Sequence record: OQ658364.1
Direction: 5' to 3' (one strand)
DNA from: Pseudomonas phage sp.
DNA length: 59,556 bases
Part shown: positions 7,659 to 48,464 of the stretch, piece after piece
How positions within the stretch are numbered: position 1 is the stretch's first letter
How the letters are laid out: every line of letters begins with the position of its first letter
The notes under the pieces: model-generated
What the model saw: the letters and a program-made list of their open reading frames with translations, nothing else
Databases searched by the model: none
Told to the model about the DNA's origin: nothing
Program-made: the position numbers and the translations under genes

Positions 7659-7690
7659 TTGGTGGAACCGGGGGGATTTGAACCAGCGTC
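7659..7690 (-). repeat. att core: imperfect copy of the tmRNA 3' end
   Basis: ttggtggaAccggggggatttgaaccAGcgtc versus ttggtggaGccggggggatttgaaccCCcgtc at 48111-48142 (3 mismatches in 31 nt, same orientation). Confidence 0.8.
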
Positions 7691-7759
7691 TAGTCCTGTG
7701 TTTTCGCGGCCTCCAGATCGGAAGCTGTCATAACGCTGTCATTCTGGTCGGAAACTCGG

Positions 7760-7788
7760 TTGGCATCCAGAGTGATGGTGTGTATAAA
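7760..7788 (+). promoter_or_regulatory. putative sigma70 promoter for the attL-proximal cassette
   Basis: TTGGCA-N17-TATAAA lies about 50 nt upstream of the 7836 start. Confidence 0.4.
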
Positions 7789-7835
7789 TCGCACCTGAGC
7801 AGGATACGGTAGGCGCTTGACAGCATGGACCTGAG

Positions 7836-8249
7836 ATGACCGACCACAATTTCACCAACACTACGATCACAGAAACAGTCGTTCTCTCCGAGCCGCTGAG
7901 TGGAAACTCTATCGCTTCTATACAGGCAATTTATCCTTTTACAGAAGCTGATTATGTGAGGCTGGATAGTCAGGGCAATGTAGTGAAAAACTGGGCGACG
8001 AGCTTTTTATTTGTAGCTATTGGCTCGGCGGTCACTCTTCTCCAAAACGTCTATAAAGACGGCCTTAATACCCCGAATGATGTTGCGTCAGGGGATGTGA
8101 TAGTGTTATCAATTTTATCTCTGATTACTGCGTTATTGTTTGTTGTTAGCGCGTTTGTGCCCAATGAGAAGAAGAAATTAATGAAGCGAATAGGGAAGTT
8201 TTTCAAAGATTCGGCAAGCCAGAATCATTTTATTAGGGGCGCAAAGTGA
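7836..8249 (+). CDS. small membrane protein (2 predicted TM helices), low-GC moron gene
   Basis: 137 aa. Hydrophobic stretches ATSFLFVAIGSAVTLLQNV and VIVLSILSLITALLFVVSAFV. GC well below the prophage average. Located between attL and int. Confidence 0.55.
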   Translation: MTDHNFTNTTITETVVLSEPLSGNSIASIQAIYPFTEADYVRLDSQGNVVKNWATSFLFVAIGSAVTLLQNVYKDGLNTPNDVASGDVIVLSILSLITALLFVVSAFVPNEKKKLMKRIGKFFKDSASQNHFIRGAK

Positions 8250-8695
8250 TAACGAAAAGTAATCTTCCAAAAGGTTATATTCCTTATTCGAAGGTTAAAC
8301 TTTGCAGCAATTTGCTCAGCGGCAGCACCTTCATTCTTTCGGTGGATGAAGTTCTGCCGCTCCTAGTTGGAAAAGGAAATAAGCCTCAAATTTGGATACA
8401 GGCTATTGCTGATGCGAATATGAAGTCTTTTGTACCGATTGTAGAATCCTCCATCCCACTGTTTCCGTTTGTCCGAGTCACCACTGAGTCTGGTGTCGTC
8501 CTCGTGTTTGTTAATGATCAAGTCATTATGTCCATTCGATCTGAGGTTGATGACGAAATTAATATTTTTCAGATGGACTTAAGGCCGATTGGGCTAAATA
8601 TAGTCGGCGACGAAAAATCTCTTCGTTCCGGAGGCATGGAATTCAGCAACAGCACTTTTTCTGGGATGGGAACTTTTATGGGTTTTTCTTTGTAA
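8246..8695 (+). CDS. hypothetical cytoplasmic protein, second gene of the moron cassette
   Basis: 149 aa. GTG start overlaps the upstream stop (GTGA), with RBS aggggcgcaaa. Low GC. No recognisable motif. Confidence 0.5.
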   Translation: MITKSNLPKGYIPYSKVKLCSNLLSGSTFILSVDEVLPLLVGKGNKPQIWIQAIADANMKSFVPIVESSIPLFPFVRVTTESGVVLVFVNDQVIMSIRSEVDDEINIFQMDLRPIGLNIVGDEKSLRSGGMEFSNSTFSGMGTFMGFSL

Positions 8696-9863
8696 GAGTT
8701 TCGGTAAAGTCCTGCATGTCGATGGGCCGCCACATCACTTCTGCTTTTTCGCCCGCGTTGTAGTCAGCTGATGGCATCCAGCGACCGTATATGCGTGCAA
8801 TCATGGTCCAGTCACTGTGCCCCATCTGCTGCGCCACCCACATCGGATGCTCACCAGCAGACAGCATCATCGAAGCGTAGGTGTGGCGCGTCTGGTACGG
8901 CCGGCGGTAGCGCACACCAGCCTTCTTCAGCGCATACATCCAGAGCGTCTTTCGAATCGGGCCGTCACCGGCCCAGCGCTCTCCCGTCCTCGGGTTCTGA
9001 AAGACTTCCTGGTTGGCCAGGTAGGTGAATGCCTTCTGCGCCTTCAGGGCTTCCAGCGCAGGGCCGAGCAGCTTGATGCTGCGCCGGCCGGAGGTGGTCT
9101 TCGTCACCTCCGCTTTTCCCTTGGCTGCCTGGGTCATGGCGCGGGTGACGCGCACCTCGCCGCGGAGCCAGTCAATATCGCCCCACTCGAGGCCGACGAG
9201 TTCGCTGGTGCGCATCCCCGTCCAGAATGCGAACTGCACCAGGTTCCGCCCTTGACCATCGAGGGAACTCAGAATCGCCTGCTGCTCTTCCGGCGAGAAT
9301 GGGTCAACGTCGTCGACCTTGACCTCTCCCTTCCTTGCGTACGTCCAGCCGGCGAGAGGGTTGCTGTCGATCAGTTCCTCTTCCATCGCATCGCTGAGGG
9401 CCGAGCGTAGGCAGCTCTGGATATTGCTGAGCGTCTTGTTGCTCACCTTCAGGGTGTCCAGCCAATCCTTGACGGCCTTCCGCTTCAGGTCGACCACCAT
9501 GGCGGACCCTAGGGCCGGCACCAGACGAAGCTCTACAATCTTCCTGTAGCCCTCGAAGGTGCTGCTGGAGACGTGCTTGCGCTTCGACTCAAGCCATCGG
9601 CCAAGGAATCCCGCAACCGTCTCGCGTGACGCCTCAGGCGCAAACTTGGCGGCGCGCGGAGATCCAGGAAATGTCACCGAGTAGTCGAAGGTACCGGCGG
9701 CGATCGCATGTTCGATAGCCGCCTTGTGCTGCTCTGCTCGCTTCAGGTTAGTGGCGGTGGGCTTGAGCGAGATGCGCTCCCGGCACCTGACGCCGCGATA
9801 CATGAACGTGATTTCGATACTCGAATCAGAGACCGCCCTGACTCCCCGCCCATCTCTACCCAT
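8676..9863 (-). CDS. int: phage integrase (lambda-type tyrosine recombinase)
   Basis: N-terminal arm-binding IEITFMYRGVRCRE. Catalytic region with …HTYASMMLSAGEHPMWVAQQMGHSDWTMIARIYGRW…. Confidence 0.9.
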   Translation of the reverse strand: MGRDGRGVRAVSDSSIEITFMYRGVRCRERISLKPTATNLKRAEQHKAAIEHAIAAGTFDYSVTFPGSPRAAKFAPEASRETVAGFLGRWLESKRKHVSSSTFEGYRKIVELRLVPALGSAMVVDLKRKAVKDWLDTLKVSNKTLSNIQSCLRSALSDAMEEELIDSNPLAGWTYARKGEVKVDDVDPFSPEEQQAILSSLDGQGRNLVQFAFWTGMRTSELVGLEWGDIDWLRGEVRVTRAMTQAAKGKAEVTKTTSGRRSIKLLGPALEALKAQKAFTYLANQEVFQNPRTGERWAGDGPIRKTLWMYALKKAGVRYRRPYQTRHTYASMMLSAGEHPMWVAQQMGHSDWTMIARIYGRWMPSADYNAGEKAEVMWRPIDMQDFTETLTKKNP

Positions 9864-46779: not shown

Positions 46780-46796
46780 TTTGATGGAGGGCTTAA

Positions 46797-47921
46797 ATGG
46801 CATGGTATTCAACCGGCACCGTCGCGGTGACAGAAAATAGCCCGACCGTCACCGGCACCGGAACTCAGTTTTCTTCTAATGTCCGGGTAGGCGACGCCTT
46901 TATTGCCCCTGACGGGCGCCTCTACGAAGTGAGCAACGTCGCCAGTTCGACGGTCATGTCGATAAAGCCCAACTACCGGGGCAGCACGGCTAGCGGCCAG
47001 CCCTATGCGGTGGCGCCAATCCTGGGTTACGACAAGGAGCTGAGCGATCGATTCAACCTGATAGCGAACCAGTGGGGAGGGACGCTGGCCGGCATTCAGC
47101 CGTGGGCAACGGCACCGACGCCGGCCCAGGCGAGGAGCTCGCTCGAGTTGCGCAGCGCCGCCCAGGCCGATATCGGTACAACGCTTGGAAACGCCATGCC
47201 GGTCGGCGCATTCGGGATTGGTTCTGAGCGTCCTGACCGAGCACCATCGATTCATCGTTATGCGACAAGCGTCGAGATATTCGATTCGACAACTGTTGAC
47301 TCCGTGGCAACTGGCATTAGCAACGGATCTGTGTTGACGATCGGCTACGACGGATCCGACTTGCGAGGAGCGCAGATGTTTTTCGGCCAGGTGCCGGCAT
47401 CTACGGTCAAAGGTCGGTGCGGGAAATTCTCGTCTGCCCCTATTTTCGAGTTCTACACGACTATAAACACGACGAGAGCAACCGACGGGACGCTTCGTGC
47501 TGCATCGCCAGTCGTGCGTATCGCCAACGTTGATGGGAGCTTGAGACCGGACCTCAACGAACTGGACTTCGAGCCTGCGGGGGCTTGGGGTGTAGCCAAC
47601 GCAGAGGCCCGCGGCGTTACTGTTCAACGGCTCGCCGTTGGCGTCTACAAGGTCTCTGGTAGCCTGGGGCTAGCGAAAGAGGGCTGGCGCGTGATCGACC
47701 CTGCGTCTCCCGACGGCGGTCGCCCACTCGGTATCACTGACAGCGAACAGGCTGAGGATGGGGCGGTCACCATCCGTCTCTTCAAACAGCGCTGGACACT
47801 CAGTGACGACGGAGAAATGGTGCTCGGGAAGGGCGCTCCGCTGGACGTGCCGCTCAATAGCTGGATCGATGTCCGATTGTCGATGCCGGCACCTCCTGAG
47901 GTGCAGCCCGAGACTCTATGA
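46797..47921 (+). CDS. tail fibre protein (putative receptor-binding)
   Basis: 374 aa, Gly/Ser/Thr-rich. Last late gene, followed by a terminator. Confidence 0.5.
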   Translation: MAWYSTGTVAVTENSPTVTGTGTQFSSNVRVGDAFIAPDGRLYEVSNVASSTVMSIKPNYRGSTASGQPYAVAPILGYDKELSDRFNLIANQWGGTLAGIQPWATAPTPAQARSSLELRSAAQADIGTTLGNAMPVGAFGIGSERPDRAPSIHRYATSVEIFDSTTVDSVATGISNGSVLTIGYDGSDLRGAQMFFGQVPASTVKGRCGKFSSAPIFEFYTTINTTRATDGTLRAASPVVRIANVDGSLRPDLNELDFEPAGAWGVANAEARGVTVQRLAVGVYKVSGSLGLAKEGWRVIDPASPDGGRPLGITDSEQAEDGAVTIRLFKQRWTLSDDGEMVLGKGAPLDVPLNSWIDVRLSMPAPPEVQPETL

Positions 47922-47922
47922 A

Positions 47923-47950
47923 CAGCCCGCACTCTGCGGGCTTTTTTGTG
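47923..47950 (+). terminator. rho-independent terminator of the late operon
   Basis: GCCCGCA-ctc-TGCGGGC followed by TTTTTTGTG, using the sequence implied by the ORF-track translation. Confidence 0.65.
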
Positions 47951-48111
47951 CTTGGGTAGCCGGAGATCAAGGCCAGGTATCCGCTGCCGGAGGCGATCCT
48001 AGGCGAATGACAGGCTGTCATAAAGCTGGCATTACCGAGCCAAAACAGCCCATTCAGGCACAAAAAAGGCACTTGCGATAATCGCTAAGTGCCTGATTTT
48101 GTTAGTGCATT

Positions 48112-48464
48112 TGGTGGAGCCGGGGGGATTTGAACCCCCGTCCGCCAGCTCTCCGCTATCGGTTCTACATGCTTAGCCAGCTCTACTGAGTTAACTCCGC
48201 GCCGCCCGAGTGGCAGGGTGCTTGGAGCGAGCTGTATGAGTTTTAGCCGTTACGTCTACAGCGAACTTGGCGGCGATCCTGTTCTATCTGACAGTCGTTT
48301 CGGGTTTACAGGCATCCCCTAGCGACTGCTAGCCGCATTAAGCAGCTAGAGCGTAGTTGTCGTCGTTGGCAACTATAAGTTTGCAGCAGCGAATTTACGA
48401 GTTCTGCTACCAGCTCGGCATGCCCCTCAAGTTTTGTTACCGGCGTCGAATCCTAATCGGCCCC
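48112..48464 (-). ncRNA. ssrA: tmRNA (SsrA)
   Basis: The reverse complement begins GGGGCCGATTAGGATTCGACGCCGG and ends …GGGGGTTCAAATCCCCCCGGCTCCACCA. The tag ORF GCCAACGACGACAACTACGCTCTAGCTGCTTAA encodes ANDDNYALAA*. Confidence 0.95.

Follow-up and report, generated by a model that had tools for sequence, protein, structure and literature searches.

Organization of the ssrA locus

We analysed a 59,556-nucleotide (nt) stretch of DNA deposited as Pseudomonas phage sp. (record OQ658364.1; this whole stretch is called the window below). It holds an intact gene for transfer-messenger RNA (tmRNA), ssrA, a complete prophage lying against the 3' end of this gene and, on the far side of the prophage, a displaced copy of the ssrA 3' end followed by part of a genomic island that carries an integrase of its own, Int2 (Table 1). 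This arrangement is best explained by two unrelated integrative elements inserted in tandem at the 3' end of ssrA, the prophage standing between ssrA and the island, a reading to which we assign a probability of about 0.88.

A single tmRNA gene was detected in the window by ARAGORN (tag peptide ANDDNYALAA), and Rfam agreed with this call. The 3' end of the gene recurs in the same orientation at the other end of the prophage: the ssrA-proximal junction TTGGTGGAGCCGGGGGGATTTGAACCCCCGTC and the distal junction TTGGTGGAACCGGGGGGATTTGAACCAGCGTC are identical at 29/32 positions (with A for G at 7667 and AG for CC at 7685-7686) and lie 40,452 bp apart, start to start. All but one of the 32 nt fall within ssrA, and the displaced fragment proper spans 7660-7690. 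The repeat is real and non-random: the window contains no further copy of the 32 nt, their 16-nt core is confined to the same two sites, and 0/100 dinucleotide shuffles of the sequence yielded any match to them. In addition, a below-threshold Rfam tmRNA match (7660-7713) covers the distal copy. An earlier note on this DNA, made from its letters alone, had described an intact tmRNA gene ending at 48112 and a 31-nt imperfect repeat with three mismatches, about 40.5 kb apart and bracketing a complete lambdoid prophage, and all of this was borne out.

The genomes used for comparison were found by exact protein look-ups, in which a 179-aa open reading frame (ORF) of the island served as the query for island carriers. 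All states of the site were observed among P. aeruginosa genomes: empty, island only, prophage only and the same array. The earlier note had suggested a comparison with an island-free ssrA locus, and the empty site (L007) indeed has the matching junction; there, GGACGGGGGTTCAAATCCCCCCGGCTCCACCA runs into AACGCAAACGATAAGCCCC, followed by a 212-aa gene and the TM2 and PAAR genes. In the island-only genomes (L014, L016, L017, L019 and L020), the tmRNA end CCCCCCGGTTCCACCA is joined to ACAAGCACACAAGG, then comes an intact 607-aa Int2, and the outer repeat ATCCCCCCGGCTCCACCA with the native flank appears 10,871 bp further on. Prophage-only sites are found in the records of phages vB_Pae_U2 and D14B, where the distal fragment GACGCTGGTTCAAATCCCCCCGGCTCCACCA gives way to the native flank. 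The same array is already present in a public complete genome (L018, CP120871.1), which matches the window over 9 kb with no mismatch and 2 indels (99.98% identity). The distal junction of the window combines two of these states: its phage side is identical to the U2 lysogen (150/150), and its outer side is identical to the island-only genomes (150/150, vs 47/150 to the native flank). The same island was also found with a different, unrelated element in front of it (L015), and a sister island (L002, a Logan contig, SRR28981972) has the layout of the island-only genomes.

Table 1. Features of the ssrA locus; positions count from the first nucleotide of the window.
Feature	Position	Strand	Basis or detail
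ssrA (intact tmRNA gene)	48112-48464	minus	ARAGORN and Rfam RF00023, 207.5 bits
ssrA-proximal prophage junction TTGGTGGAGCCGGGGGGATTTGAACCCCCGTC	48111-48142	+	G at 48119, CC at 48137-48138
Distal junction with displaced ssrA 3' fragment TTGGTGGAACCGGGGGGATTTGAACCAGCGTC	7659-7690	+	same orientation as TTGGTGGAGCCGGGGGGATTTGAACCCCCGTC
Predicted strand-exchange interval of the phage integrase CCGGGGGGATTTGAACC, 17 bp	7668-7684	+	deduced from flanking marker bases
Complete lambdoid (siphovirus-type) prophage	7691-48110		40.45 kb repeat to repeat; Pfam and PHROGs modules
Two accessory ORFs, 137 and 149 aa	7836-8695	+	phrog_12702 and phrog_12462 (both function-unknown families)
Prophage tyrosine integrase Int1, 395 aa	8676-9863	minus	Arm-DNA-bind_2 5e-21, Phage_integrase 2e-16 (Pfam)
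Prophage excisionase (Xis)	9743-10018	minus	phrog_9668 'excisionase', 5e-42
cI-type repressor with Peptidase_S24 autocleavage domain	15668-16459	minus	Pfam 1.5e-23
DnaC/IstB-like loader	20766-21650	+	Pfam
DnaB helicase	21647-23044	+	Pfam
Endolysin, GH19 domain	25353-25970	+	weak Pfam Glyco_hydro_19, 25.3 bits, 1.5e-05 (gathering score 25.5)
Packaging and head: TerS, TerL, portal, S78 prohead protease, HK97-type major capsid	27414-32659	+	Pfam
Lambda-like tail module, including M/L/K/I-type tip genes	35905-47921	+	Pfam on L004/L006 counterparts
Tape measure	35905-39162	+	tail module
GpJ	42384-45836	+	length equals 1150-aa product of L004
Tail fibre	46797-47921	+	length equals 374-aa product of L004
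ssrA-proximal part of the genomic island	1-7658		7.66 kb of ~10.9 kb; continues beyond the left edge
Island hairpin CACAAGGCC / GGCCTTGTG	7625-7652	minus	read from sequence
Int2 gene, DUF6538 family, 607 aa when intact	5723-7547	minus	split ORFs 7128-7571 and 5723-7150
DUF3800 cargo gene, 398-aa ORF	4474-5670	+	Pfam PF12686 4.5e-10; phrog_12991
Small serine recombinase, resolvase/invertase type	3538-4128	minus	Pfam Resolvase 7e-38
Conserved island backbone ORFs: 144 aa, HTH_23 208 aa, 287 aa, 179 aa	578-3372	minus	Pfam, PHROGs, alignment

The prophage and its attachment site

The prophage has a complete lambdoid gene set, from int-xis, the cI-type repressor and replication genes to lysis, packaging and head genes and a lambda-type tail. 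Its integrase Int1 is intact and lambda-Int-like, with an arm-binding domain, and is 98% identical to Int of phage JBD68. Counterparts of the endolysin gene in the matching phage records are annotated as 'endolysin'. Tail genes were called with Pfam on products of L004 and L006 (374, 1150, 1085 and 248 aa), which were paired with the window by length and by their ssrA-adjacent position, and these calls agree with the annotations of the phage records.

The prophage as a whole is nearly identical to deposited phages. By megablast, its int-to-terminase half (7636-30000) is covered to 99% at 98.6% identity by vB_PaeS-D14B (BK061476) and vB_Pae_U2 (PP003914), and to 91% at 98.4% by phage 5400 (PQ758390). 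The structural half (30000-48200) is covered to 87-93% at 92.8-99.2% identity by D14B and U2 (83-87% at ~99% for D14B and 5400; 93% at 92.8% for U2). D14B differs from the window at the tail-fibre end (about 45.8-48.1 kb), and past the distal fragment both the U2 and the D14B records carry the native flank instead of this island. JBD68 (KY707339) shares the int, attachment-site and early region but has an F10-like structural module; it forms lysogens on PAO1 and also yields lysates (PMC12952977). Given the shared int-attP module, this provides indirect evidence that the prophage of the window may be inducible.

The phage attachment site (attP) of JBD68, a phage sequenced from virions, contains GTTAGTGAAT followed by TTGGTGGAGCCGGGGGGATTTGAACCAGCGTC and TAGTCC, and the two ends of the prophage rebuild this same attP, with 149/150 nt identical in the ssrA-side arm and 149/150 nt in the arm at 7690. 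The right arm of the prophage is in addition identical to that of other lysogens (150/150, L004). The last ~26 nt of the intact ssrA gene are now supplied by the prophage.

Marker bases in the repeat were traced through the empty, island-only and prophage-only sites and through attP. At the distal copy, AG at 7685-7686 is the attP version, found both in the JBD68 attP and in the distal copy of every lysogen, and the A at 7667, which reads as U in the RNA (GGTTCC), belongs to the form of the tmRNA end borne by the island. At the ssrA-proximal copy, G at 48119 is as in the phage attP, and CC at 48137-48138 comes from the tmRNA body. The distal repeat is thus an exact chimera of a phage attP arm and a tmRNA end supplied by the island. 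Since the island marker at 7667 and the attP markers at 7685-7686 flank it, the interval 7668-7684 is where the phage integrase must have exchanged strands; the earlier note had taken the two downstream mismatches for a plausible crossover boundary, and rightly so. This interval covers the T loop and the 3' T-stem strand, together with the final 2 nt of the 5' T-stem strand and the initial 3 nt of the 3' acceptor strand. The island shares with ssrA an identity block of only 17-18 nt, and its own exchange appears to lie 5' of the C/T marker, within ATCCCCCCGG. The phage and island crossover segments would then overlap without being identical, so that the notion of an island using the same tmRNA attachment site stands as regards the ssrA end used by both elements and fails as regards the exact segment. 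As a footnote to Islander defines that class, both crossovers belong to the 'T loop / T-acceptor junction' class.

The two versions of the marker base differ in the tmRNA itself. In island-only genomes, a G4.U pair replaces G4-C in the acceptor stem, adjoining the G3.U alanine identity pair (L014 3445-3460; L002 9866-9887). Phage integration would restore the C of this stem (compare 7667 and 48119 of the window). Two further species of Pseudomonas (L028, L034) have islands with the U variant of the tmRNA terminus as well.

Two further observations concern the prophage borders. The D14B (BK061476 38223-41283, L012) and U2 (PP003914 40916-45121, L013) records overrun the attachment site of the prophage into DNA of the host or an island and take in native ssrA flank, with DUF6119 and another integrase in D14B and PAAR/TM2 in U2; prophage predictors may accordingly swallow a neighbouring island or native flank, as both of these records do. 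Inside the prophage, the two accessory ORFs sit between the attachment site and int, at a low GC content of 47%. They had no PADLOC, Pfam or credible NCBIfam match (the 137-aa ORF gave a chance-level E=0.068). JBD68 shares the first of them and has a different second gene, and for this reason the region looks like a moron slot.

The island and its integrase

The left part of the window is 99.9% identical over 7690 nt (1-7690) to the island of the island-only genomes L014 and L017 by BLAST, and differs in few alignment columns from the islands of L016, L019 and L020. It is absent from the empty site, and its GC content is 45-58% over 1-7658, vs 66-69% for core DNA on the right side of ssrA. The length of 10,871 bp, repeat to repeat, applies to the full island in the array genome L018 as well as in L014. 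The third, outer ssrA repeat that closes it, 17-18 nt long, is located at 14316-14331 in L018 and at 14316 in L014; because position 1 of the window corresponds to position 11117 of L018, this repeat would lie ~3.2 kb beyond the left edge of the window. The earlier note had proposed to look for a third copy to the left; the 31-nt repeat that it took to delimit the whole array bounds the prophage only, and the outer limit of the array is ATCCCCCCGGCTCCACCA. In island-only strains, the island hairpin is found directly 3' of the tmRNA end, for which reason it presumably stands in for the native terminator.

Int2 starts 112 nt from the distal repeat and is transcribed away from it. A second tyrosine integrase had been described as pointing at the repeat: an integrase does stand beside the repeat, but it is its 5' end that faces it, and it is Int1, inside the repeats, that has its 3' end towards the distal repeat. 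In the window, Int2 is represented by a pair of ORFs that resemble 603-610-aa proteins named 'site-specific integrase / DUF6538 domain-containing protein' at NCBI. A tblastn comparison with a 92%-identical protein (P0001) placed the frame change near residue ~135, where an extra T at 7142 splits the gene; 6/7 aligned genomes are intact at this position and L018 has CT there. A second +T, at 1391, changes the C-terminus of the 287-aa backbone ORF, which is 297 aa long in other genomes. These are the sole two single-base insertions of the window relative to near-identical genomes, and both turn GGCC into GGTCC; they could thus be a systematic sequencing artefact and not real frameshifts in Int2 and the 297-aa ORF.

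Several lines of evidence indicate that Int2 is a tyrosine recombinase, an assignment for which fold comparison and PHROGs were required. Int2 matched phrog_1 'integrase' (3.8e-14), and PF00589 matched 17/25 of its homologues at E<=1 (best 1.6e-5); the catalytic part of Int2 had no significant Pfam or NCBIfam match. In an AlphaFold model of Int2 (mean predicted local distance difference test, pLDDT, of 79), all 14 Foldseek matches in the PDB at E<=1e-3 were tyrosine recombinases (probability 0.99-1.00), including Brujita Int, Tn1549 Int, lambda Int, XerH and XerA, with template-modelling (TM) scores of 0.32-0.61 (normalised to target) that are modest, as expected for a two-domain model. Residues R256 (GARTNE), K290, R382 (YSFRHT), H410 and Y420 are invariant in 41 homologues, and Tyr379 apparently occupies the position of the first catalytic His, with equivalences read from motifs alone. 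The likeness of Int2 to the phage Int is limited to the box-I motif.

To place Int2 in its family, one genome per species was scanned, which returned 42 relatives. Among the 13 closest, 11 start ~112-115 nt past an intact tmRNA gene, and the other 2 come after a displaced fragment of such a gene; the distant relatives (25-38% identity) adjoin tRNA-Met, -Phe, -Ser, -Thr and -Val genes. Because the close relatives adjoin tmRNA genes or fragments and the distant ones tRNA genes, this distribution supports ssrA as the target of Int2, in a clade that appears to behave as ordinary integrases targeting tRNA and tmRNA genes (tDNAs). In the searchable literature, we found no mention of the island or of its DUF6538 integrase family. 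Exact-sequence look-ups of the 475-aa Int2 fragment and of the 398-aa DUF3800 ORF returned no match, probably because gene callers chose other start codons.

The islands of the sister genome L002 and of L014-L020 share the same backbone, made of the serine recombinase, 144-aa, HTH_23 and ~297-aa genes, and a small Cro/cI-type helix-turn-helix (HTH) gene was observed in L018. The sister island resembles that of the window in its position at ssrA and in its integrase (92% identical by tblastn); in L002 and in the island-only L014-L020 genomes the integrase is intact and lies directly past the tmRNA gene, unlike in the window. The slot between Int2 and the serine recombinase (3630-5738 in the window; 11870-15769 in L002) is a swapped module: the two islands cease to be homologous inside the recombinase gene on one side and at the int 3' end on the other, and DUF3800 in the window occupies the place of a Ppl defence gene (PADLOC 4e-154) in L002. 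PADLOC assigned no defence model to any island ORF of the window, DUF3800 included. DUF3800 genes have been reported in association with 11 structured RNA motifs (Weinberg 2017, PMC5737381). Here, a search for such an RNA gave no Rfam match at gathering score or E<=1, and a 251-nt region upstream of the DUF3800 gene (in 4129-4473) folded on par with shuffles (z = -0.34). Just upstream of the serine recombinase start, we observed a perfect 11-nt inverted repeat, TGGGATCATTA (4135-4145) and TAATGATCCCA (4179-4189), and GGTATCAAAAA occurs twice upstream of this gene, at 4152 and 4209; together (4135-4219) they may form a res or operator site.

With more doubt than confidence, we put forward that the DUF6538-integrase island is a recently spreading, ssrA-specific cargo shuttle with an exchangeable slot, in which DUF3800 would be an undescribed anti-phage gene. 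A side effect of such a shuttle would be that island carriers express a tmRNA with a G4.U acceptor stem, a change that the phage would reverse. The swappable slot (DUF3800 vs Ppl) of an integrase family that goes unmentioned in the searchable literature is the one lead to follow.

Order of insertion and known tandem arrays

In the sequence of events that we consider probable, the island inserted first and the phage second. The attP of the prophage carries a copy of the last ~27 nt of the tmRNA, and the lambda-type Int1 would recombine it with the ssrA 3' end, strands being exchanged within the 17-bp GGTTCAAATCCCCCCGG (T loop and T stem); this would regenerate the full tmRNA gene at 48112-48464 and leave the 31-nt fragment at 7660-7690. 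Int2 would recombine the island slightly further 3', within its own segment, the island contributing a hairpin and a tmRNA terminus of its own (variant GGTTCCACCA). A phage arriving in an island carrier would then enter the only complete bacterial attachment site (attB), that of the functional ssrA, push the island outward and put the wild-type C back in the tmRNA acceptor stem. The outer repeat of the island is without GGTTCAA, the 5' part of the phage crossover segment; such a phage would thus have one usable target, which would make the observed order obligatory if the island came first.

The anatomy of the locus, the composition of its junctions, the four site states and the identities of the integrases were directly observed, and several points nevertheless weigh against the tandem reading or the order given to it. 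The outer end of the island is beyond the window and known from near-identical genomes only. Int2 scored 12.2 bits against Pfam PF00589, below the gathering score of 27.1, and PDB sequence searches with Int2 alone and with a 25-sequence profile gave no match. Present mobility of either element, in the form of excision, is something that we infer. As for the order, the junctions by themselves would not reveal it, because an identical sequence would result if the island entered a lysogen at its displaced fragment, and either of the restored cores may receive a second element (Mageeney et al. 2020, PMC7192596). Moreover, the island is 99.9% identical across strains whose adjacent core differs by 1.1-1.3%, which implies that the 10.9-kb island spread horizontally in recent times and need not be 'old' in this lineage. 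An older island with a prophage inserted in between was the scenario of the earlier note: the prophage does stand between ssrA and the island, and 'older' is plausible, not proven.

The opposite order, in which the phage entered an empty ssrA and the island was later inserted into the displaced 31-nt fragment, is possible, though we judge it rather unlikely. Indeed, the displaced fragment in U2 and D14B keeps the entire island target TCAAATCCCCCCGGCTCCACCA plus the native flank, so that island entry at this place would yield exactly the sequence of the window; the island has also clearly been mobile in recent times (99.9% identity across backgrounds with ~1.2% core divergence), and either restored core would be usable (PMC7192596). 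However, an island arriving in a lysogen would find two equivalent targets, one of which gives the observed order, whereas insertion of the island first gives it obligatorily. Int2 is moreover frameshifted in both array genomes (the window and L018), though the frameshift could post-date insertion, and arrays with an Int2-family island in distal position recur with three other unrelated proximal elements, in L015 and, in other species, in L026 and L032. The core adjacent to ssrA was uninformative on this matter: the 3.4-kb flank (48112-51550) is present in 15 genomes, to all of which it is 98.7-99.3% identical, and no sister lineage was singled out among them.

Two further explanations deny the independence of the two elements. 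That the island is a satellite of this prophage, or functionally tied to it, might be suspected from their adjacency and from the gene content of the island: it carries an integrase and, in L018, a small Cro/cI-type HTH gene, and it has recently spread although no obvious genes for transfer were recognised over its 10.9 kb. We hold it to be very improbable, and rejected it: in most of the sampled genomes the island is present and this prophage absent, and the prophage likewise occurs without the island; the same island adjoins an unrelated element in L015; and no capsid, packaging, primase or helper-interference homologues were found among the island ORFs by Pfam, NCBIfam, PADLOC and PHROGs. 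Hardly any credit can be given to a single composite element, or to a left flank that is core chromosome with the repeat being a mere attachment scar of the prophage, even though the window taken by itself shows two repeat copies only. The empty-site genome L007 lacks the left flank, which has its own ssrA repeat in L014 and L018, differs from the core in GC content and carries its own integrase; the empty site, the outer repeats and the 150/150 junction matches refute both versions of this explanation.

The tandem of prophage and island is nothing out of the ordinary for this integration hotspot, which is well known. Arrays of this type have already been described at tDNAs, and above all at ssrA: in a set of 3919 islands, Islander found 125 tandems of two or more, with ssrA as the most enriched target (PMC4383910), and TIGER provides an account of how tDNA arrays form (PMC7192596). 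The array in the window is of the same kind, with an intact tDNA at one end, same-orientation 3' fragments both between and after the elements, a tyrosine integrase for each element and an element-borne copy that restores the gene; here, each element has its own displaced fragment and its own integrase, and empty and single-element sites were found. It differs in that one integrase is frameshifted and that the crossover segments overlap without being identical.

The locus itself has been described too, as core defense hotspot 2 (cDHS2), which is flanked by ssrA and serves as a landing pad where mobile elements of diverse kinds, prophages and defence islands among them, are found (Johnson et al. 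2023, PMC10250203). The locus is identical, with ssrA on one side and VOC, LysR and RidA genes on the far side, and in the passages of that paper that were consulted it is treated as a hotspot without resolving single elements or attachment junctions; the island of the window differs from its defence islands in having no defence system recognised by PADLOC. In keeping with this location, L015 has VOC (Glyoxalase) and LysR genes on the far side of the same island, and L003 and L008 have VOC/LysR/RidA genes. Two papers on regions of genomic plasticity make no mention of ssrA. What the present comparison adds to cDHS2 is base-exact ends for one prophage and one island in the P. aeruginosa ssrA hotspot, and it illustrates that marker bases in an attachment repeat can locate a crossover.

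Other occupants of the ssrA site were seen among the compared genomes (L005, L010, L003, L008 and L015), namely islands with a P4-like integrase that carry OLD/UvrD (Gabija-like) or Eco57I-type restriction-modification genes, a block with DUF6119 and an Int_N integrase situated past the native terminator, and an element that carries CsrA, MtlR, DUF4238 and ankyrin genes. Finally, Rfam detected the Pseudomonas small RNA P5 (RF01680, 103.5 bits) at 59383-59453 on the plus strand, in core DNA at the right edge of the window.

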